64,000 bases of DNA from Verrucomicrobiales bacterium (lineage in GTDB: Bacteria; Verrucomicrobiota; Verrucomicrobiia; Limisphaerales; CAIMTB01), in NCBI GenBank assembly GCA_016795425.1, contig JAEUHG010000174.1, positions 68,131 to 132,130 on the forward strand. The letters are read 5' to 3'. The notes below the pieces were generated by a model. It saw nothing but the letters and a program-made list of their open reading frames with translations, made no database searches and was not told where the DNA came from. A program made the position numbers and the translations under genes. Of this stretch, positions 1 to 51,438 are shown in pieces (position 1 is the first letter of the stretch; each line of letters begins with the position of its first letter).

Positions 1-2803
1 GATGCAACAGGCAGGCCATGCTGGGGCTGATCGAAATCGGCGTGCTCGTGCTCACGAAGATCGCGTCGAGGTCGTGCAACGTCATGCCTGCCGATCCCAA
101 TACGGCCCGTGCCGCTCGGGTCGCCAAGGTCAACGCCGTCTCGCCAGGGGCCAACAGTCTCCGGGATTCAATGCCGGTTCGTTGGAGAATGTCGTGGGCG
201 GTTCTGCCGGCAAATCGTTGGACCAGTTCCTCGTTGGTCACAATCCGCCCTGCCGGCGCGGTGGCTATGGAACCAAGCCCCACCACTGCCCGCTCTCCCG
301 TCCGGGCCGCCGCAGACGCCCGGATCGCTGGCAATGAGGCCGCCGCGCCGCTCGTTCCCAGGCGCCGACGCAGCAATGGCTTCGCTTCCACCGGAATGCG
401 TCGCGGGAGGACTTGTCCGGCGCCATCCAAGGCGATGCGGGCAATCGGTGTCCCAACCGGCACCTTCTGGTCCACTGCCAACAATTCTCGAATCACACCG
501 CCCACCGGGGCCCGCAACTCGAACGTCGCTTTGTCGGCTTCGCAATCCGCCAGAAGATCCCCGGCCGTCACTTTGCCGCCTTCCGCCACTTTCCATTCCA
601 CCACCGAGACCGTTTGATCCGCTGGACTCGAGCCCACGGCTTCCAGGGTGAAGAGCCCGGAATTCGCTGCCGCCGGCTCTTCCCAAGTAAGGTCCAAGTC
701 ACACAGTTCCGCCGCCGCTCCCAAAACTCGGCGCAGGTCGGGAAACACTTCGAGTTGGTTGATGTAGTTGAACGGTGGATACGTGTCGGGACGGGCCAGA
801 CGCCGGGAAAGAAACGGCACCTCGACGGTCTCCGCCACTCCGGCGAGAACTTCGGCACCGAATCCGCACGTCAGATTGTCCTCGTGAACAACGATGAGGC
901 GCCGGGTCTTCCGCACACTGGCGCACACTGTGTCACGATCCCAGGGACTCAGCGTGCGCAGGTCGAGCAGATCCACCGTCACGCCCGCATTGGCGAGGAT
1001 CTGCGCCGCCCGCATCGCCAGAGGAAGGGTGCTGCCCCACGCCACCAGGGTCAGGTCATCACCCGCCGTCACTCGGCGTGCCAATCCTGGTTGAATCACT
1101 TCATCCAGGCTCGCCAGCGGCGCCGCCAAGGCGGGGTCGTTGAGGCAGACCTTCGGATAGAGAAACACCGTCGGGCGCCCGGGCTTTTGGTTGGCGAAAG
1201 CAGCGTTCAACAAGCCAGCGGCATCGGCCGCCGTTGCCGGCACCACGACATCGATGCCCGGCATGTGGGCGAACACGCTCTCGAAGTTCTGAGCGTGGAA
1301 TGGTCCCAGGCCGGGCCGATAACCTCCGCAGGGCGCCAGAACGATCACCGGCGCCTTATAGCCTCCGGCGCTTCGCCAGTAGATGGTCCCCAATTCGCAA
1401 GCGATCTGATTGAACGCCAGCGGCAGAAAATCCGCGAACTGAATGCAGGCGACCGGCCGCCCGCCCGCCAATCCTCGGCCAACACTGACACCCAGAATCG
1501 TCGATTCCGTCAGGGCGGAGTTCTTGACCTGATCCGGGAAGGCACGGCTTAAGCCTCGTGTTAGTCCGAAAACGTCCCCCTTCGGATCCTCAATGTCTTC
1601 GCCAAAGAGCGACACCCTCGGGTCATCGGCCAGGTGCCGCCGCAACACCTCACGCATCGCCTCCAGCATGGTCAATGCCGCCTCGTTGCCCGCCGCCACT
1701 CGCCCCTTGCCGGAGGGCGGTCGAACCGGGCCCGCCTCCGGTGCCCGTGCATCCAGGTTGGCCACCGGGTTGGGCACCACCAACGACACATCCGCCGCCA
1801 TGCGCACGGCGCGCTCCACCTCGACCTCGAGTTCCGCCAATTGCGATTCCGCCACTCCACCGGCCACTAAACGCCGGCGCAGCCAGGCGATGGGATCCGA
1901 CGCACCACGTACCTGGTGGATTTCTTGTTCGTCGCGATAGACCCGTTCGTCGTCCGCATTGGTATGATGCGTCAGACGTTCCACCTCCATCACCACCAGC
2001 GCCGGGACCCCCGTGCGGGTCTTCGATACGATGGGCCCCAACGCCGCCTCGCATTCCAGAACATCCCGCCCGTTCAGGCGATGGACCGGCAGGCCATAGA
2101 ACTCGGAGGCCTGACCGTCGGGCAGGTTGTAGAACGTCTTGCCGCTGGTGCGCGTGGAAATGCCGTAGCCATTGTCCTCGATCAGAAAGATCACGGGGAG
2201 CCTGGCTCGCACCGCCTCGGCAATCGCCTCAAGAAACTCCCCTTGCTGCGAAGTACTGTCGCCGTTCGAACAGACCACCACCGGCAAACCGTCGTCGTGG
2301 CCGCTCCCGTTGGTCGCGGACCGGCGTCGCGCCCGGGTCACGAGAATCTCCTGGGCCACTCCGACGGACGGCAGGGCATTGTTGCCCACCGGACCCGCCA
2401 TGGTGAGTACGTTGACCTCCGGCGCGCTCAGGTGCGCGCACATCTGCCGCCCCTTGGAGGTCGAGGCATCGTTGCCCAGCAATCCGTGGAAGAACTGCTC
2501 GACGGGAACACCTCGCGCCAGCATCAGGGCCTTGTCCCGATAGTGTGGGTGCAGCCAATCGTCGGCACGCAGGTGGGAGACGAACGCGACGGAAGCCTCG
2601 TGACCGGCACCCCCGACGTGGAAGAACGCCTCGCCGCGATTGACCAGTTCCATCTCCACCCGGTCGACCATGCGGGACATCCACATGAACCGATACAGCG
2701 ACAACGCTTTGACAATGTCGCCGCGGGCCACAGGGACCACCAGGTCCCGAGTCTCAACACGACCGTCGCACTTTACAGATGGCGCGGAATCCACAGGTGA
2801 CAT
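1..2803 (-). CDS. Fusion protein: 2-oxoacid (branched-chain/pyruvate-type) dehydrogenase E1 alpha + E1 beta + lipoyl domain + N-terminal part of a KAS III (FabH-like) domain. The 3' end lies beyond the window.
   Basis: Not in the supplied ORF track because there is no stop inside the window. Manual minus-strand translation from the ATG at 2801-2803 gives one uninterrupted 934-codon frame. E1alpha TPP motif: NGDSTSQQGEFLEAIAEAVRARLPVIFLIEDNGYGIS. E1beta: LFGEDIEDPKGDVFGLTRGL..ACIQFADFLPLAFNQI..RRLIVVHEDNLTCGFGAEV. Lipoyl domain: TVSVVEWKVAEGGKVTAGDLLADCEADKATFELRAPVGGVIREL, with the lipoyl-Lys codon at 530-532. After a ~45-aa linker comes VGLGSIATAPAGRIVTNEELVQRF..DILQRTGIESRRL..TLATRAARAVLGSAGMTLHDLDAIFVSTSTP..SPSMACLLH, typical of a FabH N-terminus. 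Confidence 0.85.
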   Translation of the reverse strand, partial: MSPVDSAPSVKCDGRVETRDLVVPVARGDIVKALSLYRFMWMSRMVDRVEMELVNRGEAFFHVGGAGHEASVAFVSHLRADDWLHPHYRDKALMLARGVPVEQFFHGLLGNDASTSKGRQMCAHLSAPEVNVLTMAGPVGNNALPSVGVAQEILVTRARRRSATNGSGHDDGLPVVVCSNGDSTSQQGEFLEAIAEAVRARLPVIFLIEDNGYGISTRTSGKTFYNLPDGQASEFYGLPVHRLNGRDVLECEAALGPIVSKTRTGVPALVVMEVERLTHHTNADDERVYRDEQEIHQVRGASDPIAWLRRRLVAGGVAESQLAELEVEVERAVRMAADVSLVVPNPVANLDARAPEAGPVRPPSGKGRVAAGNEAALTMLEAMREVLRRHLADDPRVSLFGEDIEDPKGDVFGLTRGLSRAFPDQVKNSALTESTILGVSVGRGLAGGRPVACIQFADFLPLAFNQIACELGTIYWRSAGGYKAPVIVLAPCGGYRPGLGPFHAQNFESVFAHMPGIDVVVPATAADAAGLLNAAFANQKPGRPTVFLYPKVCLNDPALAAPLASLDEVIQPGLARRVTAGDDLTLVAWGSTLPLAMRAAQILANAGVTVDLLDLRTLSPWDRDTVCASVRKTRRLIVVHEDNLTCGFGAEVLAGVAETVEVPFLSRRLARPDTYPPFNYINQLEVFPDLRRVLGAAAELCDLDLTWEEPAAANSGLFTLEAVGSSPADQTVSVVEWKVAEGGKVTAGDLLADCEADKATFELRAPVGGVIRELLAVDQKVPVGTPIARIALDGAGQVLPRRIPVEAKPLLRRRLGTSGAAASLPAIRASAAARTGERAVVGLGSIATAPAGRIVTNEELVQRFAGRTAHDILQRTGIESRRLLAPGETALTLATRAARAVLGSAGMTLHDLDAIFVSTSTPISISPSMACLLH

Positions 2804-2853: not shown

Positions 2854-4035
2854 TCAGTTTTGGCTGAGCCGCTTTTGAGGTCCGTCAAACAGAAGGGCGT
2901 GCGCCTCACGAAGTATCCCAGGTATGATCTCCCGAAAAGGGCTGCGCTCCAAAACCTTGCTTAACGCCGAACCTTCGATTGTCCCGGCATTCTCGCCGGG
3001 AAACCAATGGTCCGCGGTTCCCAACAGGTTGTAACGCATCTTTCCCCACGCCACGAGATCCAGGCCTTTCGCGTACGTCCAGAGCCGGAGGATTTCCGTC
3101 AGATTCACTTGCCCGGGAACTTCCAGGTACTCCGGCAAACCTTCCCGCCATCGCAGCATCCACTCCCGGCCGACCACGTTCTCCAGAGCCTCGCGCAATC
3201 GAGCCTCGATGGCCGGCAACACCTCGTGCATCCGGTCATAATGCGCCAGCGCCGCCACATGCTCATCGAAATCCGCCGGCCGCGCCGCTCCCAGGCTCAA
3301 CGTGTGCACCTCGGGATGGCTCAAGCAATACAGATCATTGAACTGCATCGGTGTCAGCGGCCGACATAGGTCCACCAACTTCGGCGGCGGCTCGTAGAGT
3401 TTTCCCCCCTTGTCGTTGGGACTGATGATAAACACCCCCATGTCCCGTCGTCGCGCCTCCGGAATCGCCTCCCGATTCAGTTCGTTGACGAAATACCAAT
3501 GCAAATTGACGTAATCGAAGGCGTCGCTCCGCACCGCATCCAATACAACGTCCGTGGTGGCATGGGTGGAAAATCCGACGTGCCGAACTCGACCTTCCGC
3601 CTGCAAACGCCGAGCTGCCTCGACACAGCCTCCCTTTTTCAAGGACCAGTCCAGAAATTGGCGGTTGTTGATGCCGTGCAGGGACAGCAAATCCACATAG
3701 TCCAGCCTCAGGTACCGCATCGATTTCTCGAAAAGGTCGAGAAACTCCTTGGCCGTCGCGGTCGGCGGCACCTTGGTTTGGACAATCAACGACGCGCGTG
3801 GAAACTGGGCCAGCACCGGACCCAGTTGCATCTCACTGGAGCCATAGCCCCGCGCCGTTTCGATGTGGTGGATACCCAACTCCACCGCCCTCCGAATGGT
3901 GGCTTCGAGGTTCGCCTGGCCTTCCTTGGGAACGTCCTCCCACGCAATGTCCTGCCACTTGTGCTGGTAGCGCATCCCGCCGCACGAAAAGACCGGCATC
4001 TGGAGGTTGGTCTTCCCGAATCGGCGATAGCGCAT
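2854..4035 (-). CDS. Aldo/keto reductase family oxidoreductase with a C-terminal extension
   Basis: Track ORF 2854..4170. The conserved AKR N-terminus MRYRRFGKTNLQMPVFSCGGMRY..IETARGYGSSE begins at the internal ATG at 4035. The upstream 45 codons are Arg/Pro-rich and unlike AKR proteins. Confidence 0.85.
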   Translation of the reverse strand: MRYRRFGKTNLQMPVFSCGGMRYQHKWQDIAWEDVPKEGQANLEATIRRAVELGIHHIETARGYGSSEMQLGPVLAQFPRASLIVQTKVPPTATAKEFLDLFEKSMRYLRLDYVDLLSLHGINNRQFLDWSLKKGGCVEAARRLQAEGRVRHVGFSTHATTDVVLDAVRSDAFDYVNLHWYFVNELNREAIPEARRRDMGVFIISPNDKGGKLYEPPPKLVDLCRPLTPMQFNDLYCLSHPEVHTLSLGAARPADFDEHVAALAHYDRMHEVLPAIEARLREALENVVGREWMLRWREGLPEYLEVPGQVNLTEILRLWTYAKGLDLVAWGKMRYNLLGTADHWFPGENAGTIEGSALSKVLERSPFREIIPGILREAHALLFDGPQKRLSQN

Positions 4036-8707: not shown

Positions 8708-10669
8708 CTAGGAGCCGTTTCCGGCCAGCTCCTCGTTGCTCACCGCATTCAGGATCTTGAAGTGTTCCGCGTGAATGCCGGGATCCGGACGGAACGAAAT
8801 CCGGCCGAAGAACTTCTTCTCGAGTTCGATGATGAATTTCTCATCTTCCCGGCGCAGCCGATCATAGACGGTGGGGTGCACCACGATGCGCAGTTGGAAA
8901 TCGGACTCGTCGCGTGGACGGCGCTTCAGGATTTCCACCAGCTTCCGCTGAATCTCCACGCTCATGGTCTCGGCGCTCTTCACTCTCCCGCGTCCACGGC
9001 AATAGGGGCAGCTGTCGTACACCGACGACTGCACGCTCTCCGTCTGTCGTTGCCGGGTCATCTCGAGCAGGCCGAGCGGGGAGATCGGCAACAGATGGGT
9101 CTTGGCCTTGTCCCGACGCAATCCGTCGCGCAATCGGTTGAAGACTGCGCGCTGATCCTTGGGATGCCGCATGTCGATGAAGTCGAGGATGATCAACCCT
9201 CCGATGTTGCGCAGGCGCAGTTGCCGCGCGATTTCGTCGGCCGCTTCCAGGTTCACCTGCAGGATGGTCGAATCCAGATCCTTGCCGGACTTGTGTTTGC
9301 CGGTATTGACGTCGATCGCCACCAGAGCTTCGGTCTCGTCAATCACGATATAGCCGCCGCTCTTCAGATGGACCGTTCTCTGAAAGGTGGTCTCCAACTG
9401 CTTGGTGATGTTGAATCGATCGAAGATCGGCTGCGGTTCGTTGTACGCCTTCACCTTGCTCATCGACCGTCGCGAAATGCGGCCGATCATCTCCTTGATC
9501 CGCTCGTACTGCCGGAACTCGTCCACCAGGATGCGATCGACGTCCTCCGTCAGGAAGTCGCGTACCGTCCGGGCCACCAAGTCAGGCTCCTCGAAGACGC
9601 AACTTGCCGCCGGCTGCTTCTGAATGCGCTCCTGGATCGACCGCCACTCGTCGAGCAGCAGCGCCAGGTCGCGAACGAAGTAGCGCGCTTGTTTTCCTTC
9701 GCCGGCGGTCCGCATGACGACACCCATGCCCTCCGGAATGGATAACTCGCGCAGGATTCTCTTCAGGCGGGCGCGTTCCTCGGGGTTCTCGATCTTTCGA
9801 GAGATGCCGGATTGATCGGAATTGGGGAGGAGCACCAGATACCGCCCGGGCAGGGACAGGTTGGTGGTAATGCGCGGACCCTTGGTGCCGATCGGACCCT
9901 TGGTGACCTGCACGATGATCTCGCTCCCGGCCGGGTACAGCCGCGGAACGTCCTTCTGGGTGATCTTGGGCCGGTCCCGCTTCCGCCCCTCCCGTTCCAC
10001 GATCTCCACATTGCTGTCGAACTGGCTCGGAACAATGTCCCAATAGTGCAGAAACGCGTTCCGCTCGAACCCGATATCCACAAAGGCTGCCTTCAGTCCG
10101 TCCTCCAAATTGCGCACCCGCCCTTTGAAAATGCTCCCCACCAATCGTTCCTCGTTGGTGCGCTCAATGGTGAACTCGTCCAGTCGGCCGTCCTGCAGAA
10201 CCGCCACGCGGATCTCCAGCGATTCTGAATTGATGATAATCTCTTTGCCGCTGGGTTTCTTCGGACGCAACAGGCGCGCCACCTTCTCCACCATGCGTCG
10301 CGCCGCCGATTTGATGGATTCCAGCAGCGTTTGAGGCTTGTTGTCCGCCGGTTTTTCACTGGATTCCGCAGGCAATGACGCCGCCTCCGTCTCCGGATTC
10401 GGCACCTCCGTTGGCACGGACTCAGCGGCGCCGGGGACGCCGGATGGGACGACGGGCTCCTGCCCTTGAGCCTTGGCTTCAGAGGCTTCGATTTCCGACT
10501 GGTAACGGCGGGTGTTGAAGACGTTTTCCCCGCTGTCGGATTCGGCCGCCGCGCGCGCTTCCTGCGAGGCTCGGTCGTTCTTGGGGGAGTTGGGATGGTT
10601 CTGCATCCCGCCTTCGGGGCGGAATCGCATGCCGCCACGACGGCGGCCAGAGAATCTTCGATCGCTCAT
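8708..10669 (-). CDS. rng: Ribonuclease E/G family endoribonuclease with a disordered N-terminal extension
   Basis: Canonical RNase E/G core from KEIIINSESLEIRVAVLQDGRLDEF, with the S1 motif GSIFKGRVRNLEDGLKAAFVDIG, ..VAIDVNTGK.., and GGLIILDFIDM. The ATG at 10669 sits 2 nt after the rodA stop (10672-10674). The track start at 10834 would overlap rodA. Confidence 0.9.
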   Translation of the reverse strand: MSDRRFSGRRRGGMRFRPEGGMQNHPNSPKNDRASQEARAAAESDSGENVFNTRRYQSEIEASEAKAQGQEPVVPSGVPGAAESVPTEVPNPETEAASLPAESSEKPADNKPQTLLESIKSAARRMVEKVARLLRPKKPSGKEIIINSESLEIRVAVLQDGRLDEFTIERTNEERLVGSIFKGRVRNLEDGLKAAFVDIGFERNAFLHYWDIVPSQFDSNVEIVEREGRKRDRPKITQKDVPRLYPAGSEIIVQVTKGPIGTKGPRITTNLSLPGRYLVLLPNSDQSGISRKIENPEERARLKRILRELSIPEGMGVVMRTAGEGKQARYFVRDLALLLDEWRSIQERIQKQPAASCVFEEPDLVARTVRDFLTEDVDRILVDEFRQYERIKEMIGRISRRSMSKVKAYNEPQPIFDRFNITKQLETTFQRTVHLKSGGYIVIDETEALVAIDVNTGKHKSGKDLDSTILQVNLEAADEIARQLRLRNIGGLIILDFIDMRHPKDQRAVFNRLRDGLRRDKAKTHLLPISPLGLLEMTRQRQTESVQSSVYDSCPYCRGRGRVKSAETMSVEIQRKLVEILKRRPRDESDFQLRIVVHPTVYDRLRREDEKFIIELEKKFFGRISFRPDPGIHAEHFKILNAVSNEELAGNGS

Positions 10670-10671
10670 GG

Positions 10672-11856
10672 TTAATAGGATCTGCGATACAGGTGGACGT
10701 TTTGGAGGAGACCCATGGCGAGCAGGGCACAGACAGCCGCGGAACCGCCATAACTCAGCAGCGGTAACGGGATGCCTGTCACGGGCATCAATCCAATGTT
10801 CATACCGACATTGATGAAGACGTGGGTGAACCAAAGGCCCACCACGCCGGTAGCCAGTAATCTTCCCAGACGGTCGCGCGCCTGGCCGGCGATCTTTAAC
10901 CCGCTGAACAGCACCACCGTGTACAGGCCAACCACGAGGATGCTCCCCACAAAGCCACTTTCCTCGGCGATCACCGAGAAAATGAAGTCATTGTGGGCCC
11001 CCAAACGAGGGAGGTATCCAAGGGCATTCTGCGTCCCTTGACGCCAGCCCTTGCCCGTCAGGCCGCCGGAGCCGACGGAAATCAACGCCTGCTGCACATT
11101 CCACGCCTTCTGGCGTTGCAGCTCGCGGTAATACGCCCGCTGCTCGGGCGTCGCGTTCTTCGGCGCAAAATCCTTCCCAAAATAAACCATCAATCGGTGG
11201 CGCTGGTACTCCTTCAACTTCAACAACCGGAATTTCTCGGGCGCGAACAAAACGTCCGCCACCAACAACCCTCCCACCACCACCGCCAACCCCACGATCC
11301 GCGCCAACATCCGCACCGGCACGCCGGCGACAAACATCATCGCCAGCATGGTCGGCACGAGGACGATCGCCGATCCAAGGTCGGGCTCCTTCAGAATCAG
11401 CACAAAGGGTAGCAACACAATCCCCAGGGTCTTGAACACCACGTTGGTCAGACGCAATTCCTCCAGGGGCCGGCTCAAAAACTGGGCCAGGGCCATCGTT
11501 ACTGCCAGTTTGGCGAATTCCGAGGGCTGAAATTGGAACGGCCCCAGTTCGATCCACCGCCGCGCTCCGTTGCGATCTACCCCGATGACCATCACCAGCA
11601 GCAACAACAAGATCGCACCCCAATACCCCACCCACGCCCAGCGCGCCAAAATGTGATAGTCCACCAGGCACAACGATACCGCCCCCACCAACCCCACGGT
11701 AAACCAAACCATCTGCTTCGCCGTCGTTCCGCCGTCGCCCAGCGTGGAACTGTGTACGAAGGCGCAACTCACCGTCATCAACAGCAGGACCGCCGACAAC
11801 AGTGGCCAACTAAACCGCGACGGCCTCGGATTCAGCTCTCCCCCCTTCCCGCTCAC
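10672..11856 (-). CDS. rodA: Rod shape-determining protein RodA (SEDS family)
   Basis: FtsW/RodA/SpoVE signatures (..DLGSAIVL.., HNDFIFSVIAEESGFVGS, PVTGIPLPLLSYGGSA). The GTG at 11854-11856 overlaps the mrdA TGA (11853-11855) as GTGA, suggesting translational coupling. The track start is 11892. Confidence 0.9.
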   Translation of the reverse strand: MSGKGGELNPRPSRFSWPLLSAVLLLMTVSCAFVHSSTLGDGGTTAKQMVWFTVGLVGAVSLCLVDYHILARWAWVGYWGAILLLLLVMVIGVDRNGARRWIELGPFQFQPSEFAKLAVTMALAQFLSRPLEELRLTNVVFKTLGIVLLPFVLILKEPDLGSAIVLVPTMLAMMFVAGVPVRMLARIVGLAVVVGGLLVADVLFAPEKFRLLKLKEYQRHRLMVYFGKDFAPKNATPEQRAYYRELQRQKAWNVQQALISVGSGGLTGKGWRQGTQNALGYLPRLGAHNDFIFSVIAEESGFVGSILVVGLYTVVLFSGLKIAGQARDRLGRLLATGVVGLWFTHVFINVGMNIGLMPVTGIPLPLLSYGGSAAVCALLAMGLLQNVHLYRRSY

Positions 11857-13970
11857 GGTCGCCCTCCTTCCTGTCGCTCCGCCACCGCCCACGTGCCGTC
11901 TGCAACCACTCCCGCCGCAACCCCTGCCCGGGAGCCTTTCGGCACGACGGGAGCCGATGGAACTCCGGCCTCCCGACGCCGAATGACTTCGAAAATCTTG
12001 CGCGCCACCGGCGCGGAGGTGTGGCCTCCCGACCCGCCGCTCTCCACCACCACCACCACCGCGTATCGCGGACTCTCATAAGGCGCAAACGCCACGAACC
12101 ATGTGATTTTATCCACCAGAATCCGGCCTTGCTTCACCTCGGCGGTTCCCGTCTTTCCACACACCCCAAACCCGGGAACCGCGGCCTCGCGTCCGGTCCC
12201 TTCCACTTCCTCCACATCAGCCAACATCGCCGCCCGGATCAGGTCCAAATATCTCATGGGCACTCCCGCATCGCGTCGTGGAAAGGAGGGCGGAACCGGC
12301 GAGACCTCACCGGCGCCCGCTTCGACTTCCTGAATCAACCGCGGTTCCAGAACCCGCCCGCCGTTGGCCACCGCCGCCGTCATCACCGCCATTTGTAGTG
12401 GCGTCACCGTCAACGCCCCCTGGCCGATGCTCAAATGCGCCGTATCTCCCTCCGTCCAGGGATCCCTGCGATCCTTCAACTCCGCCACATAATCGTCGTC
12501 GGGCAAAAACCCGGAGACTTCCGGGCCGATCGGAACGCCGGTCTTCTGTCCCAGGCCGAACCGACGCGCCATGGCGACGATTCGTGACCGACCCGTCTTG
12601 ATCCCGTGATCGATGAAATAGGCGTTGCTCGACCGCTTGAACGCGCGCTTGAAATCGTAATCGCCCGCCGGAGCGGTGTCGTCTATCGAACGCGCGTTTC
12701 CTGGCAGCGGCCAATATCCGAGGTAATGATGCGACTCCCGGGGATCCAACACCCCGGACTCCAGGGCGGCTAATCCCACGATAATCTTGAAAATCGATCC
12801 CGGCGCGTACGCACCGGACACCGCGCGGTTCATCTGCGGTCTCAGCTTCGCGTCATTGAGCCGGGCGAACTCTTCAGGGGTCATGCCTCCCAGGAATTCA
12901 TTGGGATCAAACGCCGGCGCGGATACCAGCGCCAGCAGATCCCCGGAGCGCACGTCCATGACGACCGCAGCACCCCGTGTCGATGAGCCCGCTACTTGCG
13001 CTAAGGCCCGTTCCGCCGCCGACTGGATCTCCAAATCCAGCGTCAGTCGTACGCTGCGGCCGGGTTCCGTCGGCTGAAGAATCGATTCCTGGTGCCGGTA
13101 TCCCTGACTGTTCACGCGCAGTGCCTTCACCCCGGCGCGCCCGCGCAACGCCTCGTCAAACCGCGCTTCCAAACCCGCCACGCCCTGGTAGTCGCGCAAT
13201 CGGTAGCGGAACACCAGCGGGTCAGGGTCGTTATCGGCTTCATCCGCCCGCTGCAAATGTCCCAGGACATGCGCCGCCAGGGATCCGAACGGGTAACTTC
13301 GAATGGCCTGCACCTCCAGATCGACGCCCGGTATACCCAGGCAGCGCTCGAAGAACAGCGCCATCTGGGTCGGTGTCAGATTCTCGGCGACCGGCAATGG
13401 CAACGCCAGATCCTGCCGGTAATGCTTGAGAAATCGTTCCGAACTCACCGCCAACGGCCGGCCCAATGACTGACCCACCGCTTGAACGGTGTTGCTGTAG
13501 ACCGCCACCCTGGCCGATTCCTGCAAATCCCGCCGCTGCTCCAGCGTCAGCCGTTGACCGCTTTTCGTTCGACTCTTGCGCGAGAAAACCTGCCACCACC
13601 GCCGCGTCTCCGCGGTGGTCGCGACCTTCAACGCCGGGTTCTGGGCTTGTTGCGCCCGAAAATTGGGCAGGACTTGGTTCGTGTATTCATGCGCAAACGA
13701 CGATCGCAGCTCCTCGACGTAAAGGTTGACGTCGTAACTGGGTCGGTTCTCGGCCAGGGCAATGCCGTTTCGATCCAGGATCTTCCCGCGCACCGCCGGA
13801 ACGCGAACCAAACGCACCGACTGCGCCTCCTCGCTCCGTGCATACCGATGCGCCGCCATCACCTGGAGGCGCCAAAGGCCTCCCGCCAGCACCAGCAAAC
13901 CCACCAGGACGACGACCGCGACCACCCGCAGTCGGGCATCGTCCTTTTGCAATTGGTCGATAATCAGCAT
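11853..13970 (-). CDS. mrdA: Penicillin-binding protein 2 (elongasome transpeptidase)
   Basis: N-terminal TM segment, PBP dimerisation domain (RGKILDRNGIALAEN), and transpeptidase motifs (APGSIFK; SSN in FKRSSNAYF; CGKTGTAE). Sits between mreD and rodA. Confidence 0.92.
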   Translation of the reverse strand: MLIIDQLQKDDARLRVVAVVVLVGLLVLAGGLWRLQVMAAHRYARSEEAQSVRLVRVPAVRGKILDRNGIALAENRPSYDVNLYVEELRSSFAHEYTNQVLPNFRAQQAQNPALKVATTAETRRWWQVFSRKSRTKSGQRLTLEQRRDLQESARVAVYSNTVQAVGQSLGRPLAVSSERFLKHYRQDLALPLPVAENLTPTQMALFFERCLGIPGVDLEVQAIRSYPFGSLAAHVLGHLQRADEADNDPDPLVFRYRLRDYQGVAGLEARFDEALRGRAGVKALRVNSQGYRHQESILQPTEPGRSVRLTLDLEIQSAAERALAQVAGSSTRGAAVVMDVRSGDLLALVSAPAFDPNEFLGGMTPEEFARLNDAKLRPQMNRAVSGAYAPGSIFKIIVGLAALESGVLDPRESHHYLGYWPLPGNARSIDDTAPAGDYDFKRAFKRSSNAYFIDHGIKTGRSRIVAMARRFGLGQKTGVPIGPEVSGFLPDDDYVAELKDRRDPWTEGDTAHLSIGQGALTVTPLQMAVMTAAVANGGRVLEPRLIQEVEAGAGEVSPVPPSFPRRDAGVPMRYLDLIRAAMLADVEEVEGTGREAAVPGFGVCGKTGTAEVKQGRILVDKITWFVAFAPYESPRYAVVVVVESGGSGGHTSAPVARKIFEVIRRREAGVPSAPVVPKGSRAGVAAGVVADGTWAVAERQEGGRP

Positions 13971-13972
13971 GG

Positions 13973-14587
13973 TCAGGATCGCCCTCTTTTGATTTCACGG
14001 TCCTGACGAATGGTCGGTTGGGGTACGACCGGATATTGGCACGCCGCGACCACCCACCCGAACCACCGGAATAGGATCGGAGTGCCGATCGCCCCTCCCA
14101 ATGCCACCACCGTCACCTGCCAAATGACTCCTGGCCCCACTTCGGGCAACGACACCAATCCTTGGCGGCCTTCCGGGAAATATTCCGGAGCCATGGTCTT
14201 GTCCCACAACAGCGGCCAAAGCACGAAGAGCAAAAGCAAAGAAATCACCATCACCGCCACGGCTGAGGCCCCGCCCAACGCCGCCTGCGCCCAGGTCGAA
14301 TCACGCAACAACAGGTCCCGGCGCAGATGCAGGACCACCCCCAGACTCATCAATGGCAACACGCTCAGCCCGAACGGCCCCGCCGACAGCGCATCCATTC
14401 CCAGGCCACCCAGGAGTGCCGTCGCCGCCGTCGTCGGCAGGCTCGAACTCAGTGCCGAATACACCACCAATCCGGGCACAAAATCGGGTTGCGCCGCCAT
14501 GAAGCCGCGGAACCCGGAAAGCCAGCCCTGGAGGAAGACCACCAGAAACGTGGTCAAAAGCAGCGCCGTTGGATGGACCCAGTTCAT
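13973..14587 (-). CDS. mreD: Rod shape-determining protein MreD
   Basis: Polytopic hydrophobic protein of about 200 aa, directly after mreC. The ATG at 14585-14587 overlaps the mreC TGA at 14584-14586 (ATGA). Assignment rests mainly on position and topology. Confidence 0.75.
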   Translation of the reverse strand: MNWVHPTALLLTTFLVVFLQGWLSGFRGFMAAQPDFVPGLVVYSALSSSLPTTAATALLGGLGMDALSAGPFGLSVLPLMSLGVVLHLRRDLLLRDSTWAQAALGGASAVAVMVISLLLLFVLWPLLWDKTMAPEYFPEGRQGLVSLPEVGPGVIWQVTVVALGGAIGTPILFRWFGWVVAACQYPVVPQPTIRQDREIKRGRS

Positions 14588-15390
14588 GGCAGCTTCACCC
14601 AAACCAGATCCAGGGATCCCATATTCACCGCCAGACGGACGCGCGCCTCGAGGAAGACCCCGTCCCCCACCACCCGCGAATCCACCACCTGACCCACCGC
14701 AATTCCTGCCGGATAAATGCCTCCCTGCCCGCTCGTGAAGACACGCTGACCAGGATTCAAAACCGCGTTTCGGGACAGAAAGGAAAGGTCCACCAGCGCC
14801 CCTTCAATATCCCCGCCGGAAGTCCCGCGAACGATGCCGGTATTTCCTGAATCGGCCAGCGCGACCGATACCGGACAGTTCGGGTCCCCAACCAAGACCA
14901 CCCGCGACAGCCAAGGACCTACCTCCGCCACCCGGCCCACCAGGCCTTCGGGCGTGAGAACGGGAAGATTCGTGGTGACCCCATGGCGCGTTCCCACATC
15001 CAAATGGACACCTCGCCACCAATTCGCGGGGTCCCGGCCAATGACTCTCGCGGGCTTCAGCTTCCATGGGCTCCGGGCTGAGAAACCCAGCATCTGCCGC
15101 AGTCGATCGCTTTCCCGGCTCGCGGCATCCGCCTCCGCAACCATGAGCCGCAAGCGCTGATTCTCCTCCTCCAGGGACCGAATCCGCGCGGCCATCGTCG
15201 ACCTGGGAATCAGCGACGCCGTCGCCCGATCCCCCGCGGACTGCACCGAACTGGCCAGCCCGAACAGAGGGAGAAAGAGGCTGGCAAACCCCATCCGGAT
15301 GCGGGACCGGGTATGCTCCGGAAGGGCCAGGAGCACCAACACCAGGACCGCAACAAAGATCAGGATGAGAAAATGAGGTTTGCGCAGCAT
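14584..15390 (-). CDS. mreC: Rod shape-determining protein MreC
   Basis: N-terminal TM segment, a coiled-coil segment (IRSLEEENQRLRLMVAE), then MreC beta-barrel motifs (VLTPEGLVGRVAEVG..SRVVLVGDP; VFTSGQGGIYPAGIAVGQV). Confidence 0.85.
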   Translation of the reverse strand: MLRKPHFLILIFVAVLVLVLLALPEHTRSRIRMGFASLFLPLFGLASSVQSAGDRATASLIPRSTMAARIRSLEEENQRLRLMVAEADAASRESDRLRQMLGFSARSPWKLKPARVIGRDPANWWRGVHLDVGTRHGVTTNLPVLTPEGLVGRVAEVGPWLSRVVLVGDPNCPVSVALADSGNTGIVRGTSGGDIEGALVDLSFLSRNAVLNPGQRVFTSGQGGIYPAGIAVGQVVDSRVVGDGVFLEARVRLAVNMGSLDLVWVKLP

Positions 15391-15399
15391 CCCAGCCCG

Positions 15400-16428
15400 C
15401 TAGGCGGTGCTGGAGGAGGCGACTCGTTTGAGGAAGGAAAGCTCTTGCAACACTCGACCTGTCCCCTCAGCCACAGCACTTAATGGATCGTCGGCAATGT
15501 GCACCGGCAGCCCGGTCTCCTGGGCCACCAATCGGTCAATGCCGCGTACCAACGCGCCACCTCCCGCCATCACAATGCCGCGATCCACCAGATCGGCAGC
15601 CAATTCCGGCGGACAACGCTCCAGGGTCAGTCGAATGTTTTCTAGAATGCTCGATAGCGGTTCCTTAAGGGCATCCCTGATTTCCTCGGACCGAATGGTC
15701 AACGTCTTCGGCAGACCACTCCCGAGATCACGCCCCTTGACCTCCATGGTCAACTCCTGCTCCAGCGGAAAGGCGGAGCCGATCCGGATCTTGATCTCCT
15801 CCGCGGTTCGTTCGCCGATCATCAGGTTGTAGGCCCGCTTCATATGAGCGATGATCGTTTCGTCGAATTCGTCGCCCCCTACTCGCAGGGAACGACTGAA
15901 CACGATGCCGGCCAGGGAGATGATGGCGATTTCACAGGTGCCCCCGCCGATATCCACGATCATGTTGCCAGCCGGCTCATGCACCGGCAGCCCCACCCCG
16001 ATCGCCGAAGCCATCGGTTGCTCGATCAAATATACCTCGCGCGCCCCGGCATGCGTCGCCGAGTCCTTAACCGCGCGCTTTTCCACTTCCGTGATCCCTG
16101 AAGGAACAGCCACCACCACCCGAGGTGCGATCAACTTACGATGGTGGACCTTTTGGATGAAGTGCCGGAGCATCGACTCCGTCACCTCGAAGTCCGCAAT
16201 CACACCATCTTTCATTGGACGGATGGCGACAATGTTGCCGGGCGTCCTGCCCAACATCCTCTTGGCCTCTTCACCCACGGCCAGGACGTTGGTGGTGCCC
16301 GCCTGAATGGCCACCACGGAAGGTTCGCGCAAAACGATCCCGCGATCGCGCACGTAAACGAGCGAATTCGCGGTCCCTAGGTCAATTCCAATGTCGTTGG
16401 AAAACAGGCCTTTAAGCTGCGCAAACAT
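15400..16428 (-). CDS. mreB: Rod shape-determining actin homologue MreB
   Basis: Full-length match to MreB hallmarks: [79 protein letters not shown]. Confidence 0.97.
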
Positions 16429-16558: not shown

Positions 16559-17923
16559 ATGCGCCCTTACCCCAACTCGAGCGTTACTCCATTCGTTTTC
16601 CTGACCGTCGCTGCCGTTCTTTTCCTCACACGCCCCGCGCCTGCCGTCTCGCCCCACCCCCCAGTGCTTTCCCTCAACGCCGATGGCTCCCTGCAGGTCG
16701 AAACCCGCCAAGGCCGACGAACCCTCCCTACCCGTCTCCCCGTCCCACCCGCCACCTTCCTCTACGTCGACCAGGAACGCTACGACTCGCTACCGGTCTT
16801 CAACCCCAATACCGCCGGTTGGATCAAAGGTACCCAACTCAAAGGGTTGCGCGCTCAGGAAACCACCACGCCGTTCCTCCTGGATCCCGAAAGCGTGGTG
16901 GTCGCTAAAGCTCCGCCGGAAGCGGCCGAACCCGCGTTCATCCGTGGCTCGGACTACGACCTCGATCCCGTATGGGGAACGGTGGGTCGCCTTCCCGGCG
17001 GCCGGATCAATGAGACGACGGCGGTCATGATCGGCTATCGCTATGCGCCGCTCCGAATCGATTCAGTCATCCAAACGCGGTCGGGAACCATCGAATTGCG
17101 GTCCGGGGAACCCAAGTCCGCGGCCCCCCAACCTCCTCCCCTGAAGCGCGGCGAACAGCGCCTGGCCAACGTGTGGATCCCCGGTCGCCTCCAACGCCTG
17201 GAGCCCAAACACCTGTTTCCCATCACCGAAACCCGTTACCAGGGGCCCACCCTCCCCAGGCATCGAACCGCCAAACACACCCTCCCGAACACCTTCCGCA
17301 AATTGCGGACCGGCAAAACCCTTCGCGTTCTCGCCTGGGGCGACAGCGTCACCGATGGCAGTTACCTTCCGGATCCCTCGACCGAACGGTGGCAAGCCCA
17401 ATTCATCCACCGACTTCAAGCCGCCTTCCCGCGCGCCCGCATCGAACTTCTCACGGAAGCTTGGGGCGGACGAAATACCGGCAGTTACCTCGCGGAACCG
17501 CCCGGCAGTCCCCACAACTACCAGGAACGAGTGCTGGCCGCGAAACCGGACCTGATTGTCTCAGAATTCGTCAACGACGCCGGACTGAACCCTGCTCAGG
17601 TTCAGGATCGCTACGGTCGGCTGTGGCGCGATTTCCAGGCCATCGGCGCCGAATGGATCATTCTCACCCCGCATTATGTGCGCCCGGACTGGATGGGTAT
17701 CGACCGTGAGAACGACATCGACGACGACCCGCGTCCCTATGTTGCCGGCCTCCGCCAGTTTGCCGAACAAAACCCGGTTGCCCTGGCCGACGCCGCGCGT
17801 CGCTACGGTCGCCTTTGGCGCCAGGGCATCCCCTACACGTCCCTGATGCTCAACTCCATCAACCATCCCAACGCGCAGGGAATGGCCATCTTTGCGGACG
17901 CGCTGATGGAACTGTTCCCGTAA
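16559..17923 (+). CDS. Secreted SGNH/GDSL hydrolase with an N-terminal domain of unknown function
   Basis: Signal peptide. The C-terminal half has the SGNH blocks: LAWGDSVTDGS (I), AWGGRNTG (II), FVNDAG (III) and NHPN (V). Confidence 0.8.
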   Translation: MRPYPNSSVTPFVFLTVAAVLFLTRPAPAVSPHPPVLSLNADGSLQVETRQGRRTLPTRLPVPPATFLYVDQERYDSLPVFNPNTAGWIKGTQLKGLRAQETTTPFLLDPESVVVAKAPPEAAEPAFIRGSDYDLDPVWGTVGRLPGGRINETTAVMIGYRYAPLRIDSVIQTRSGTIELRSGEPKSAAPQPPPLKRGEQRLANVWIPGRLQRLEPKHLFPITETRYQGPTLPRHRTAKHTLPNTFRKLRTGKTLRVLAWGDSVTDGSYLPDPSTERWQAQFIHRLQAAFPRARIELLTEAWGGRNTGSYLAEPPGSPHNYQERVLAAKPDLIVSEFVNDAGLNPAQVQDRYGRLWRDFQAIGAEWIILTPHYVRPDWMGIDRENDIDDDPRPYVAGLRQFAEQNPVALADAARRYGRLWRQGIPYTSLMLNSINHPNAQGMAIFADALMELFP

Positions 17924-17961
17924 CCCGCTCCAGCGCGACCCCACCCCCGAGGCCCCAACAG

Positions 17962-18065
17962 GTAACAAATATTACAAAACCAAGGCCACTTCTTGGGCCT
18001 TGGCCCGCAGCAGGCGTGGAGAACGGGCGGTATCGGTTGCGGACATGGTTTGTAATATTTGTTAC
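17962..18065. repeat. Perfect 17-bp AT-rich inverted repeat pair enclosing about 70 nt that contain GC-rich hairpins
   Basis: GTAACAAATATTACAAA (17962-17978) is the exact reverse complement of TTTGTAATATTTGTTAC (18049-18065). The interior contains CCAAGGCC..GGCCTTGG (17980-18003) and CCGCA..TGCGG (18005-18042). It lies in the intergenic region between the SGNH hydrolase and CotH genes. Confidence 0.8.
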
Positions 18066-18138
18066 AGATTTCGGGTCAGGCGGTTTTATCCCCGGTGGCT
18101 TGGCGGATGGCGGGGCCGGTGCGAGCCTTGAACTACAG

Positions 18139-21100
18139 ATGTTGTCGTTTCTCTGCTGGATTCGAAGGTGGGTCGTGGGGCTCGCTGGTCTGTCGCTCAC
18201 CGCAACCACGGCGCTCGGTGAGTCCTTGGGACCGTCGAGTCGAAGAACCGATTGGGTGCTCTCAGAAATCCTGTTCCATCCGGCGCCGCGAGCGGACGGC
18301 CGAAACCTCGAGTTCATCGAGATCTATAACGCTGGGTTGATCGCCGAGGATCTCGGCGGGCATCGAATCAGCGGCGAGGTAAACTTTGTAGTCCCCCGCA
18401 ACACCCTCGTTCCCGCCGGCGGCTTCGTGGTTTTGGCCCCCTCTCCGGATGATCTTCGTGCCATTTACGGCCTGACGCAGGTTGTCGGTGAATTCACCAA
18501 CCGGCTGAACAACGCCGGCGGACGCATTCGCCTTCACAATCCCGCCGGGGCGGTGCTGTTGGAGGTTGAATACCAGGCGACGGCGCCATGGCCAGCGGCG
18601 GCGGCCGGAGGAGGACATTCCGTCGTCCTGCAGCGACCCTCCTTTGGCGAGGCAGATCCGCGAGCGTGGCAGGCCAGTGCTCTCATCGGCGGTTCCCCAG
18701 GAAATCCAGAACCTGCCGGCGTCGACGCCTGGGGTGGTCTCGTCATTAATGAGTGGTTGGCCCGCCTCGGCACTTCTCAAGCCGGTTTCATCGAACTTCA
18801 CAATCGTTCCGGGTTCGACCTCGACGTCGGAGGCTGTCGGCTCACCGATTCCCCGGCCAATGCGGGGTATCGATTCCCCCCTCGTTCCTTTATTCCCGGG
18901 CGCGGATTTCTGGTTGTCGAAGGATCCGAGTTTCCTCCCGAGTCTCTCGCCGGTCGGGAAAGAATCCTTCTTATCGATCCTGAAGGCACGCGGGTCATCG
19001 ATGCCATCCGGTTCGGGGGTCAACGCGTGGGGGTGAGCGGCGGCCGGTATCCCGATGGCGGTGAGGCCAGGGGCGATCTGAGGGCGCCGACGCCTTCGCT
19101 GGCCAACGCGGCTCCCCCATCGGCAGAGGTCGTGATCAATGAGATTCTCTACCGCCCGATCTCGGGCGACGAGGCCGGGGAGTACATTGAACTGCATCAT
19201 CCGGGCGCGTCGGACCTCGATATCTCCGGGTGGCGCATTGTCGACGGGGTTGATTTCGAGTTCCCGGCTGGCACCACCATTCCGGCGGGCGGGTATCTCG
19301 TAGTCGCCCGCGACGCCGAGAGACTTCGGGCACTCCATCCCAACCTCACTCCCAAAGCGGTGACCGGCAATTTCAGCGGCAGCCTCGCTAATGGCGGCGA
19401 ACGCATCGCCTTGGCGAGACCGGTGTCTCGGATGGTCCCCGACGCCACGGGAGTCGCTAAGCCTGAAACCACGTGGGCCGTAGTCAATGAGGTCACCTAC
19501 GGTGACGGTGGCGCGTGGGGTCAGTGGTCGGACGGTGGGGGTAGCAGTTTGGAACTCATGGACCCGGCTTCGGACAACCGCCTGGCAGCGAACTGGGCCG
19601 ACAGCGACGAATCCGCCAAGTCGGTTTGGACCACGATTGAGACAAGCGGCATCCTGGACCAGGGAACGGGGACGCCGGACCGTCTTCAGATTGTCGCCCA
19701 AGGCGCGGGTGAATTCCTGATTGACGACATCGAGGTCGTGAATGCCTCGGGTGCCAACCTGGTGGGCAACGGGACCTTTGCTTCTGGAATCAACGGCTGG
19801 ACCTTGCGCGGCACGATGGAGGGGTCAGCCTGGGAATCCGGCGATGGTTTCAAGGCTCCCGGTTGCCTGCGTGTCGCCTCGGTCGCAAGGGGCGATACCG
19901 GTGGTAATCGAATTCAAGCACCCTTGTCCACCTCGCCTGCCGTCGGATCCACCGCGACGATCCGCGCCCACGTACGATGGCTTCGCGGACACCCGGAAGT
20001 CCTGCTTCGCTTGCGCGGCAACCATCTGGAGGCCGTCGGAACGATGATGATTCCCGGCACGAGTGGCACACCGGGCGCCGCCAACTCACGTCGTGTCCCC
20101 AACGTGGCGCCATCCATTCGCGAGCTTCACCATGATCCCGTCCTGCCGCTGGCCAATCAGTCCGTCCTGGTCTCCGCCCGGATCAGTGATTCGGACGGAC
20201 TTGGCCGCGTCCGCCTGCGTTATCGGCTGGATCCCTCCGGCACCGTCAACGAATTGCCCATGACGGATGACGGGACCGGCGGAGATTTGGTGGCCGGCGA
20301 TCAACTCTTCAGCGCAACCCTGCCGGTGTTTTCCGGTGGAAGTTTGGTGGCCTTCCAAGTGGTCGCTGAAGACGCCCGCAATCCGTCGGGAATCGCGGCT
20401 TTTCCGCCGCAGGAAGCCCTCATCCGATACGGCGAAACCCGACCTGGCGGCAAGCTCGGGACCTATCGACTTTGGATGACCCAGGCAACTCTGAGCCGAT
20501 GGTCAACGCGGCCAAAACTCGACAACGCCCCTCTTCCCGTGACCTTCGTTTACAACGATCAACGCGTCGTCCATGGCGTTGGCGCGTTGTACGCAGGGAG
20601 TCCGCATATCTCTCCCGGGTACAATTCTCCGCTGGGGAATCTGTGCGGCTATGTCCTCATCTTTCCCGAGGACGAACCGTTTCTGGGTGCGACCGACGTG
20701 GTGTTGGATTGGCCCGGGCGCGACACGACCGCTCAACAGGAACCGATGGCCTACTGGATCGCGCGCGAGTTGGGCATTCCCTTCAACCACCGGCGCTACA
20801 TTCGACTTCATGTCAACGGTGTCACCGAAACCGCGCGTGGCAGTATTTACGAAGATGCCCAGCAGGTGAACAGCGACCTGATGGAGAGTTGGAATCCGGA
20901 GGGCACGGATGGTGATCTCTACAAGATCGAACAATGGTTCGAGTTCGATGATGGAGGTGGAACGTCGGCGGTGATTCCGCCCCGTCTGGAGAACTACACG
21001 ACCGCTGGCGGTGGCAAAAAGCTCGCGCGCTACCGCTGGAACTGGCTGAAGCGCGCCGCCCGCGGCTCCACCAGCGATTATGCCAGTCTCTTTACATTGG

Positions 21101-38276: not shown

Positions 38277-38279
38277 CGG

Positions 38280-40691: not shown

Positions 40692-40697
40692 GGGAAG

Positions 40698-41609: not shown

Positions 41610-41767
41610 CCACCGGCGACCGGTAACGGAAAGATGTTGGAGGAGACGTGCGCACCTCCTTCCGTTTTCGCACCGATTGGAGACGGCCGGCGATAGCCGG
41701 GATAAATGGGGGGCGCGCGCTCCCCTGGGAGGGGTCGCCCAACCCGATGAGACATGCAGGCGACGCT

Positions 41768-51327: not shown

Positions 51328-51438
51328 GGAAACGGGCGGCGCCAAATTGCTCCCAAGCCCGTCCCCACTCAAGCCCGCGAACCTGGGGCCGACTTCGACT
51401 CGGCGGCACGACCGATGGCGTCGAGCCGGCGAGACATT

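Follow-up and report, generated by a model that had tools for sequence, protein, structure and literature searches.

A fused 2-oxoacid dehydrogenase E1, lipoyl domain and FabH-like ketosynthase of uncultured bacteria may start acyl chains without coenzyme A

A gene at the left edge of a 64,000-nucleotide stretch of DNA from a Verrucomicrobiales bacterium (hereafter the window; assembly GCA_016795425.1, contig JAEUHG010000174.1, positions 68,131 to 132,130) encodes a single polypeptide in which the alpha and beta halves of a 2-oxoacid dehydrogenase E1 component are followed by a lipoyl domain and then by a FabH-like 3-oxoacyl-ACP synthase III (KAS III; ACP, acyl carrier protein), with no E2 catalytic core. 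In the canonical complexes, E1 acylates the lipoyl group of E2, the E2 core passes the acyl group to coenzyme A (CoA), and FabH primes from branched acyl-CoA. We propose, with a probability of roughly 0.55, that the fusion protein omits the CoA step, such that the lipoyl arm would deliver its acyl group directly to the ketosynthase. The best explanation for the sequence features described below is that the protein would serve as a self-contained chain-initiation enzyme of ~125 kDa per chain.

An unbroken frame encodes E1, lipoyl and ketosynthase domains in one chain

A first-pass annotation, made from the letters of the window alone, had described an open frame of 934 codons running on the minus strand from an ATG at position 2803 to the window edge, and retranslation of positions 1-2803 returned the same 934 sense codons with no stop. 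These are the N-terminal 934 of 1,159 codons (fusion gene, 1..2803, minus strand); the last 225, encoding the remainder of the KAS III domain, lie past the window edge. A protein database match supplied the full-length product, P0001 (1,156 aa), which is 100% identical to the window translation and for which the gene caller placed the start at a GTG at 2794, an alternative to the ATG at 2803. The omission of the gene from the open reading frame (ORF) list that accompanied the annotation is explained by the exclusion from that list of ORFs crossing the window end.

Pfam and NCBIfam models placed the domains in the order annotated earlier and within a few dozen bases of the earlier ranges. All on the minus strand, they are an E1alpha thiamine diphosphate (ThDP)-binding domain (1793..2695; E1_dh, residues 37-337 counted from the ATG, E=5e-38), an E1beta pyrimidine-binding domain (1151..1675; Transket_pyr, residues 377-551, E=9e-22), an E1beta C-terminal domain (752..1081; Transketolase_C, residues 575-684, E=4e-29), a lipoyl domain (434..610; Biotin_lipoyl, residues 732-790, E=2e-13), an Ala/Arg/Pro-rich linker (272..433) and the N-terminal 90 residues of the FabH-like KAS III (2..271; NCBIfam FabH model). 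The E1alpha domain contains the ThDP/Mg motif G-D-x...D-N and the THHTNADD loop, whose His codon is at nt 1964-1966, and the E1beta part contains the ThDP-activating Glu (codon nt 1505-1507) and the catalytic His of GPFHAQ (codon nt 1295-1297). The canonical E-A-D-K-A lipoyl-lysine reported earlier was found within CEADKATF, with its Lys codon at nt 530-532. At nt 191-193, an Asp codon stands in place of the CoA-adenine-stacking Trp32 of E. coli FabH.

A thiolase-like fold had been predicted for the last residues encoded within the window, together with a complete KAS III and its Cys-His-Asn triad beyond the edge. Within the window fragment, residues 845-933 match positions 9-96 of the NCBIfam FabH model (E=1.5e-15), and the KAS III domain of P0001 is complete: it aligns end to end with a solved FabH (Aquifex 2ebd, E=3e-46), and the catalytic Cys, His and Asn coincide in the alignment. 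P0001 stops a few residues past this domain, which rules out an E2 core fused further downstream, and no E2 catalytic core (PF00198) was present in full-length P0001 or in the precomputed Pfam lists of more than 100 relatives. A Pfam search of the fusion protein at E<=0.01 returned no match to the peripheral subunit-binding domain (E3_binding), and the linkers are short and poorly conserved; the one between the lipoyl and KAS III domains is 48-74 aa long across the family, with a median identity to the window protein of 28%. The domain junctions, suspected at first of being possible artefacts, run uninterrupted through many independent assemblies. Every prediction of the first-pass annotation that was testable in silico is thus supported at the level of sequence.

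An AlphaFold2 model built from a 44-sequence family alignment (mean pLDDT 80, pTM 0.67) shows all four folded modules with confidence and places low confidence at the inter-domain segments 365-370, 793-800 and 814-834, as would be expected of flexible tethers. The modelled KAS III part superposes on FabH structures with template modelling (TM) scores of 0.87-0.91, and the E1beta part superposes on the branched-chain 2-oxoacid dehydrogenase (BCKDH) of Thermus with a score of 0.91. No solved structure extends, by sequence or by fold, beyond the E1 part or beyond the KAS III part. Inside the low-confidence linker, residues 801-810 of P0001 (window nt ~365-394, minus strand) are predicted to form a beta-strand (pLDDT ~75) that overlaps a semi-conserved basic/Pro motif, PRRIPVEAKP, in which Glu803 is present in 69 of 83 family proteins; in the model, this strand could be a docking element for E3 or another domain.

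Catalytic residues are conserved across a widespread family

Residue conservation was counted over 83 distinct family proteins in P0001 numbering. In the E1 part, G178, N208, H277, E430 and H500 are each conserved in 83/83, and position 179 is Asp in 79 and Glu in 4. The lipoyl-lysine, K755, is present in all 83 in its E-A-D-K-A context, as are Cys952, His1085 and Asn1115 of the KAS III domain. We take H277 and H500 to be the equivalents of His291-alpha and His146-beta' of human BCKDH, which are used for reductive acylation, and E430 to be the residue that activates ThDP, roles that we regard as established (cf. the titles of PDB 1olx and 1ols). Median identity to the window protein is 54% for E1alpha, 63% for E1beta, 58% for the lipoyl domain and 50% for KAS III. 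This pattern indicates that the E1, lipoyl and KAS III modules are all under purifying selection, and with their catalytic residues intact all three look active; degenerate, non-catalytic domains were ruled out by the invariance of every catalytic residue.

The same E1-lipoyl-KAS III architecture, comprising six Pfam domains, is found in more than 100 protein clusters at 54-88% identity, whose members are named only "transketolase", "2-oxoisovalerate dehydrogenase E1 component", "beta-ketoacyl-ACP synthase 3" or "hypothetical". In a species-level survey using one genome per species, the best 80 loci gave matches that reach the end of the KAS III domain at 44-75% identity, save a few cut by contig ends, and these loci are labelled Verrucomicrobiota, Planctomycetota (mostly Pirellulaceae), Spirochaetota, Lentisphaerales and Sumerlaeota. 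Relatives of the scaffold occur in at least 550 genomes of the same one-genome-per-species data. When representatives at 50% identity were searched exhaustively and sorted by architecture, 41 of the best 150 were full-length E1-lipoyl-KAS III proteins, at identities down to 37%. Three proteins that had suggested a separate, short "lipoyl + KAS III" architecture (P0238, P0253 and P0264) begin inside the lipoyl domain and were rejected as fragments; P0224 has a complete lipoyl domain with ~120 residues before it.

Several loci, among them L032, L041, L046, L050, L062 and L065, come from metagenome-assembled genomes (MAGs) with labels that look implausible (Bifidobacterium, Cyanophyceae, Gammaproteobacteria, Beijerinckiaceae), and their fusion proteins, at 50-59% identity, are planctomycete- or verrucomicrobial-like; the odd labels are probably the result of binning or labelling error rather than real taxonomic spread. 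Among the cluster members of ten representative families, all were MAG or metagenome proteins with generic names and none came from an isolate. When a search was seeded with the protein from a MAG labelled "uncultured Akkermansia sp.", neither a named Akkermansia muciniphila nor any other isolate was among the matches, and a link to the well-studied branched-chain lipids of Akkermansia (PMC9328018) could not be made.

The ketosynthase appears changed at the donor site and conserved at the acceptor site

On the side of the KAS III domain that faces ACP, the family resembles ordinary FabH. Arg249, which we take to be the ACP-docking residue of E. coli FabH, is Arg in 82/83 proteins, and the position of Lys257, in the ACP docking patch, is Arg in 78/83. 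The oxyanion-hole Phe-Gly-Gly is conserved, with Phe304-Gly305 present in at least 80/83. At the position of Phe87, which presumably limits the size of the primer in FabH, 51 proteins have Ser and 32 have Thr (n=83), suggesting room for primers larger than acetyl.

The donor side is different. In E. coli FabH, Trp32 and Arg151 sandwich the adenine of CoA, and Arg36 touches the phosphopantetheine (PMC4606726). Neither member of the sandwiching pair occurs anywhere in the family: the position of Trp32 is Asp in 76 proteins, Glu in 4 and Trp in none (n=83), and that of Arg151 is Phe in 67, Pro in 7, Leu in 5, another residue in 4 and Arg in none (n=83). Arg36 is retained in 71/83. Of the five closest solved KAS III enzymes, four have both Trp32 and Arg151, and the atypical 3gwa has neither. 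A second control is a canonical FabH gene (locus L004, 14428-15372, minus strand) that lies beside acpP and fabF, ~3 kb from the fusion gene on the contig of a 69% relative, and that encodes both Trp32 (in SSDEWI) and Arg151 (in DPDDRGT). It is the single extra KAS III gene found in ~1.4 Mb of DNA flanking the fusion loci. The L004 contig is error-prone, its fabH being broken by frameshifts and its synteny departing from that of L003, whose fusion protein is identical, and this control is suggestive rather than firm. Because a canonical FabH is also present on the contig of at least one relative, the fusion is probably an additional initiation route and not the sole one.

As judged from these residues, the fusion KAS III is changed at its donor site and kept at its acceptor site, in line with the earlier suggestion of a CoA bypass: the CoA-adenine pair is never present and the ACP-docking Arg249 is retained (PMC4606726). 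None of the NCBIfam FabH models reaches its cut-off with this subfamily. The window fragment, which is incomplete, scores 57 bits against the NCBIfam fabH cut-off of 249, and P0249, which carries a complete KAS III of the same subfamily, scores 228.5 bits against 249 and 199 against 292, below both cut-offs.

Relatives carry other domains at the C-terminus

Proteins that share the E1alpha-beta-lipoyl scaffold end in several different ways. P0151, P0181, P0187, P0194, P0196 and P0202 carry a conventional E2 core after the lipoyl domain, P0204 carries an E2 core followed by ACP, and P0190 carries an E2 core and ACP at the head of a polyketide synthase/nonribosomal peptide synthetase (PKS/NRPS; a KS-MT-C-A assembly line). 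In P0158 the scaffold is followed by a thioesterase, in P0157 the lipoyl domain is followed by an unassigned domain of ~250 aa, and in P0130 (1,942 aa; locus L085, 10001-15829) the KAS III is followed by a ketoreductase (KR) domain and ACP. In single-chain proteins with an E2 core, the scaffold is shared through the lipoyl domain (P0151 is 55% identical to the window protein over residues 31-814); P0151, P0181, P0187, P0194 and similar proteins have a C-terminal 2-oxoacid_dh acyltransferase and presumably make acyl-CoA, whereas the fusion has KAS III at the same place.

A tree of the E1 part groups the KAS III-bearing proteins in a single clade, within which P0151 (E2 core), P0157 (unassigned domain) and P0158 (thioesterase) are nested, although the tree was built by neighbour-joining with no bootstrap and is indicative only. 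The C-terminal position behaves, to judge from these sequences, as an exchangeable off-loading slot. Since the last domain in every variant must take the acyl group off the lipoyl arm, the KAS III would fill the E2 core's functional place, and the nested C-terminal swaps provide the strongest comparative support for that placement. The first-pass annotation had proposed that the E2 core is replaced by a condensing enzyme, and the nesting of E2-core and thioesterase relatives within the KAS III clade favours this proposal; its alternative of a starter-unit module is echoed by the KR-ACP extension of P0130 and by the position of P0190.

Some of these relatives have features of their own. About 250 C-terminal residues of P0130 have no Pfam match, and its gene stands alone, with no surrounding biosynthetic cluster, between glycosyltransferase/Wzy and AbiEii genes. 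P0248, apparently an E1alpha-beta-CHASE2-cyclase protein, may be a chimera. At L086/L087 (8001-16620), two tandem genes encode an AceE-type N-terminal segment (PDH_E1_N) joined to a KAS III of the Asp/Phe subtype, their N-termini matching the first ~50 residues of AceE-type E1 (the PDH_E1_N call on P0249 is based on a precomputed hit and on NCBIfam). They are followed by genes for an ACP, two B12-binding radical-SAM enzymes, a short-chain dehydrogenase/reductase (SDR/KR) and a 360-aa protein, in what looks like an unusual lipid gene cluster. The N-terminal segment of AceE binds the E2 subunit-binding domain (PMC6270654), so that a KAS III on an AceE-type E2-docking segment provides a further physical connection, independent of the first, from this KAS III subfamily to complexes that bear lipoyl groups.

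Proposed mechanism and alternative explanations

In the reaction that we envisage, the fused E1alpha-beta with ThDP would decarboxylate a 2-oxoacid and reductively acylate the lipoyl-lysine (Lys755) of the same protein's lipoyl domain, which, carried on flexible linkers, would swing to the KAS III and, we infer, give up the acyl group by thioester exchange onto Cys952, acyl-lipoyl taking the place of the acyl-CoA that serves as the donor for ordinary FabH. The KAS III would then catalyse decarboxylative condensation of the acyl group with malonyl-ACP, and the resulting 3-oxoacyl-ACP would pass into type II fatty-acid or lipid synthesis. An E3 (dihydrolipoamide dehydrogenase), presumably encoded elsewhere, would re-oxidise the dihydrolipoyl arm. 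As heterotetrameric E1 (alpha2beta2) and FabH each function as dimers, the protein is probably homodimeric.

A branched-chain oxoacid appears the most likely substrate, and pyruvate is possible too. The best solved match to both E1 halves is the Thermus branched-chain 2-oxoacid dehydrogenase (1um9, chains A and B), and the list of the top 60 structures includes BCKDH alpha-subunits and no alpha-subunits of pyruvate dehydrogenase (PDH). This match lends weak support to the branched-chain substrates and the 2-oxoisovalerate assay of the first-pass annotation, and no curated cut-off was reached.

Several observations weigh against direct transfer from the lipoyl arm. We know of no characterised precedent in which a lipoyl arm acylates the cysteine of a ketosynthase. 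The lipoyl-lysine arm is shorter than phosphopantetheine, and the lipoyl domain would need to dock at the very entrance to the KAS III tunnel. Loss of the Trp32/Arg151 pair argues against CoA without naming lipoyl as the donor, and 3gwa lacks both residues too. Neither an E3 nor an E3-docking site was found that would account for re-oxidation of the lipoyl arm, and fab and acp genes are not conserved next to the fusion gene. On the substrate side, the NCBIfam matches of the E1 part are to PDH-type models and lie far below their cut-offs, and many Planctomycetes are not known to be rich in branched-chain fatty acids. No cultured carrier, whose lipid phenotype could be compared, was found.

The same chemistry could serve to make a specialised lipid or a polyketide-like compound, outside housekeeping synthesis of membrane fatty acids, with pyruvate, a ketose phosphate or an acyloin as a possible primer in place of a branched-chain oxoacid. 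Among related scaffolds, P0190 stands at the head of a PKS/NRPS and P0130 has its own KR-ACP, the fusion is coupled in each of two clades to a dedicated reductase (an aldo/keto-reductase and an SDR, described below), canonical FabH coexists with the fusion on one contig, and QncN/L/M-type systems show that E1-like enzymes can load units other than oxoacids (PMC6335953). We nevertheless regard a specialised product as unlikely: at most loci the fusion is a lone gene among unrelated housekeeping genes, with no biosynthetic cluster, and its conservation spans whole phyla at 44-88% identity, as would that of a core metabolic gene. It is improbable that the KAS III is a transacylase that takes the acyl group off lipoyl, hands it to holo-ACP (or CoA) and leaves condensation to another ketosynthase. 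KAS III-like acyltransferases are generally known to exist, for example in natural-product pathways, the domain occupies the site of E2 cores or a thioesterase in relatives, and it keeps the ACP-docking Arg; a simple transacylase, however, would not need the full complement of condensation residues (His244 and Asn274 in 83/83, Phe304-Gly305 in at least 80/83), true FabH enzymes are the best matches throughout, and the KR that directly follows the KAS III in P0130 implies a beta-keto product.

In keeping with the only chemistry yet demonstrated for E1, lipoyl domains and FabH, the fused lipoyl domain might instead be acylated by E1, a separate E2 core encoded elsewhere might move the acyl group to CoA, and the KAS III might use the acyl-CoA. 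Retention in 71/83 proteins of the phosphopantetheine-contacting Arg36 (PMC4606726) would suit such a detour, and our search for an E2 core covered only the window and the locus flanks. That search, however, which spanned ~1.4 Mb of flanks from 84 loci besides the window, found neither an E2 core or subunit-binding domain nor a second lipoyl protein or E1 paralogue. The fusion also lacks a subunit-binding domain with which to recruit an E2/E3 core, the adenine-stacking pair is absent from 83/83 proteins yet present in the canonical FabH on a relative's contig, and scaffold relatives that use an E2 core carry it fused exactly at the KAS III position; we therefore consider a trans-acting E2 quite improbable. 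Lastly, an artefact of assembly or frameshift, or a pseudogene in decay, might be suspected, since the window edge truncates the gene and the carriers seen all come from metagenome assemblies. That explanation is effectively refuted by recurrence and conservation: more than 100 independent clusters, drawn from different projects and assemblers, share the same unbroken frame with the 80 listed species genomes, and all catalytic residues are invariant.

Relation to known systems

Direct transfer from lipoyl to ketosynthase would set the fusion apart from the arrangement in Bacillus and Staphylococcus, in which a BCKDH complex feeds FabH, although the parts are shared: heterotetramer-type E1 motifs, a DKA lipoyl lysine, a Cys-His-Asn KAS III and an ACP-docking Arg. 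In the fusion these reside in one polypeptide, without an E2 core, a subunit-binding domain or a 24- or 60-mer scaffold, and its KAS III lacks the CoA-adenine contacts, so that the acyl-CoA intermediate is predicted to be skipped. With FabH itself (E. coli 1hn9, Aquifex 2ebd) the KAS III domain shares full-length homology (E=3e-46; TM ~0.9), the triad, Phe-Gly-Gly and Arg249, and it differs in the replacement of Trp32 by Asp/Glu, of Arg151 by Phe or another non-basic residue and of Phe87 by Ser/Thr, as well as in its tether to a lipoyl domain.

Functional parallels are QncN/QncL/QncM of quinocarcin biosynthesis and SclQ1-4 of scleric acid biosynthesis, in which an E1-like ThDP enzyme loads a lipoyl domain and the unit then passes to a carrier protein, not to CoA (PMC6335953). 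Hand-off in the Qnc and Scl systems is made by an E2-type acyltransferase to a free ACP, whereas in the fusion the acceptor would be a ketosynthase and neither an E2-type domain nor an ACP is present; among relatives of the window protein, P0204 and P0190, with their E2 core and ACP, resemble the Qnc logic. The actinobacterial enzyme OdhA has an E2-type transferase, makes acyl-CoA and borrows the lipoyl domains of E2p, having none of its own. By uniting E1o and an E2o-type succinyltransferase in a single chain, OdhA/Kgd (PDB 8p5v) nonetheless provides a precedent for fusing E1 to an off-loading domain, and OdhA was among the structural matches to the E1 part of the fusion; its E1 is of the homodimeric type, whereas that of the fusion is of the alpha/beta type.

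The first-pass annotation did not recognise the architecture as characterised, and we likewise found no paper, curated model or structure that describes an E1-lipoyl-KAS III protein, in a literature search whose coverage was not exhaustive. What is new would be a predicted hand-off between known domains. If it is correct, the lipoyl arm of oxoacid dehydrogenases can act as acyl donor to a thiolase-fold condensing enzyme, a new hand-off in two textbook systems, and amino-acid and oxoacid metabolism would be joined to lipid synthesis without an acyl-CoA pool, which would change how branched-chain lipid synthesis is reconstructed in metabolic models of abundant uncultured environmental phyla. The fusion is a compact single-gene module of ~3.5 kb that is directly testable, and for engineering it would offer a possible means of starting fatty-acid or polyketide chains from oxoacids. 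With a last domain that can be swapped among an E2 core, a thioesterase, an ACP loader and a KAS III, the E1-lipoyl unit would amount to a portable cassette for oxidative decarboxylation and delivery.

Joined together, these ideas describe a homodimer that would convert a 2-oxoacid and malonyl-ACP to 3-oxoacyl-ACP in a CoA-independent start, with the lipoyl arm priming the ketosynthase; this enzyme would belong to a wider, so far unrecognised family of single-chain "E1-lipoyl-X" proteins in which the last domain determines whether the acyl group goes to CoA, to water, to ACP or into a new C-C bond, and uncultured Verrucomicrobiota, Planctomycetota and Spirochaetota may make their branched-chain lipids mainly by this route. 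We would give this combined picture about even odds.

Gene neighbourhood and other features of the window

No gene neighbour of the fusion is conserved family-wide in the 84 loci, and all-against-all clustering of their ORFs revealed no recurrent E2, E3, ACP, fab or lipoylation neighbour. Within the 64-kb window there is no paralogue of any fusion domain and no E3 candidate among the annotated genes, many smaller ORFs lying outside that scan.

Fifty nucleotides upstream of the fusion gene and on the same strand lies a gene for a 393-aa aldo/keto-reductase-family protein (AKR; 2854..4035, minus strand). It is a conserved partner only in the verrucomicrobial subclade to which the window belongs (~11 loci), and in L003 it overlaps the fusion gene by 4 nt. 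The AKR has an intact tetrad (Glu59, Tyr64, Lys88 and His120) and is 77-90% identical across genomes, above the fusion's own identity; it is divergent, with no curated family match, and its link to the fusion is uncertain. A promoter and terminator scan detected no minus-strand element between the two genes, and the empty interval is weakly compatible with co-transcription. G+C content is 64.5% for the fusion gene, 59.2% for the AKR gene and 62.8% for the remainder of the window, a modest difference.

In a spirochaete subclade, a gene for a 259-aa SDR/KR begins 1 nt downstream of the fusion (L073, 6314-7093; L078, 6242-7039; L079, 13340-14119; all plus strand; also L047 and L076), and its best NCBIfam match, below threshold, is to a mycolate reductase/FabG-like model. 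Two unrelated carbonyl reductases, AKR and SDR/KR, are thus coupled to the fusion in different clades, and these pairings, along with the KR-ACP of P0130, hint that a beta-keto product is made and then reduced.

Rfam and tRNA scans of the window were empty. A cell-shape cluster upstream of the fusion gene, at 8708-16428 (minus strand), comprises mreB, mreC, a 209-aa ORF at the mreD position and genes for a PBP2 transpeptidase, RodA/FtsW and RNase E/G. It is followed by a gene for a 2,092-aa protein in which five lamin-tail domains are combined with a CotH kinase domain (17815-24093, plus strand), a 1,492-aa ORF without any Pfam match (28326-32804, minus strand), BatA/VWA "aerotolerance"-type genes (35400-43603, minus strand) and a gene for a 1,119-aa Tricorn-like protease with PD40, Tricorn PDZ/C1 and S41 domains (48013-51372, minus strand).

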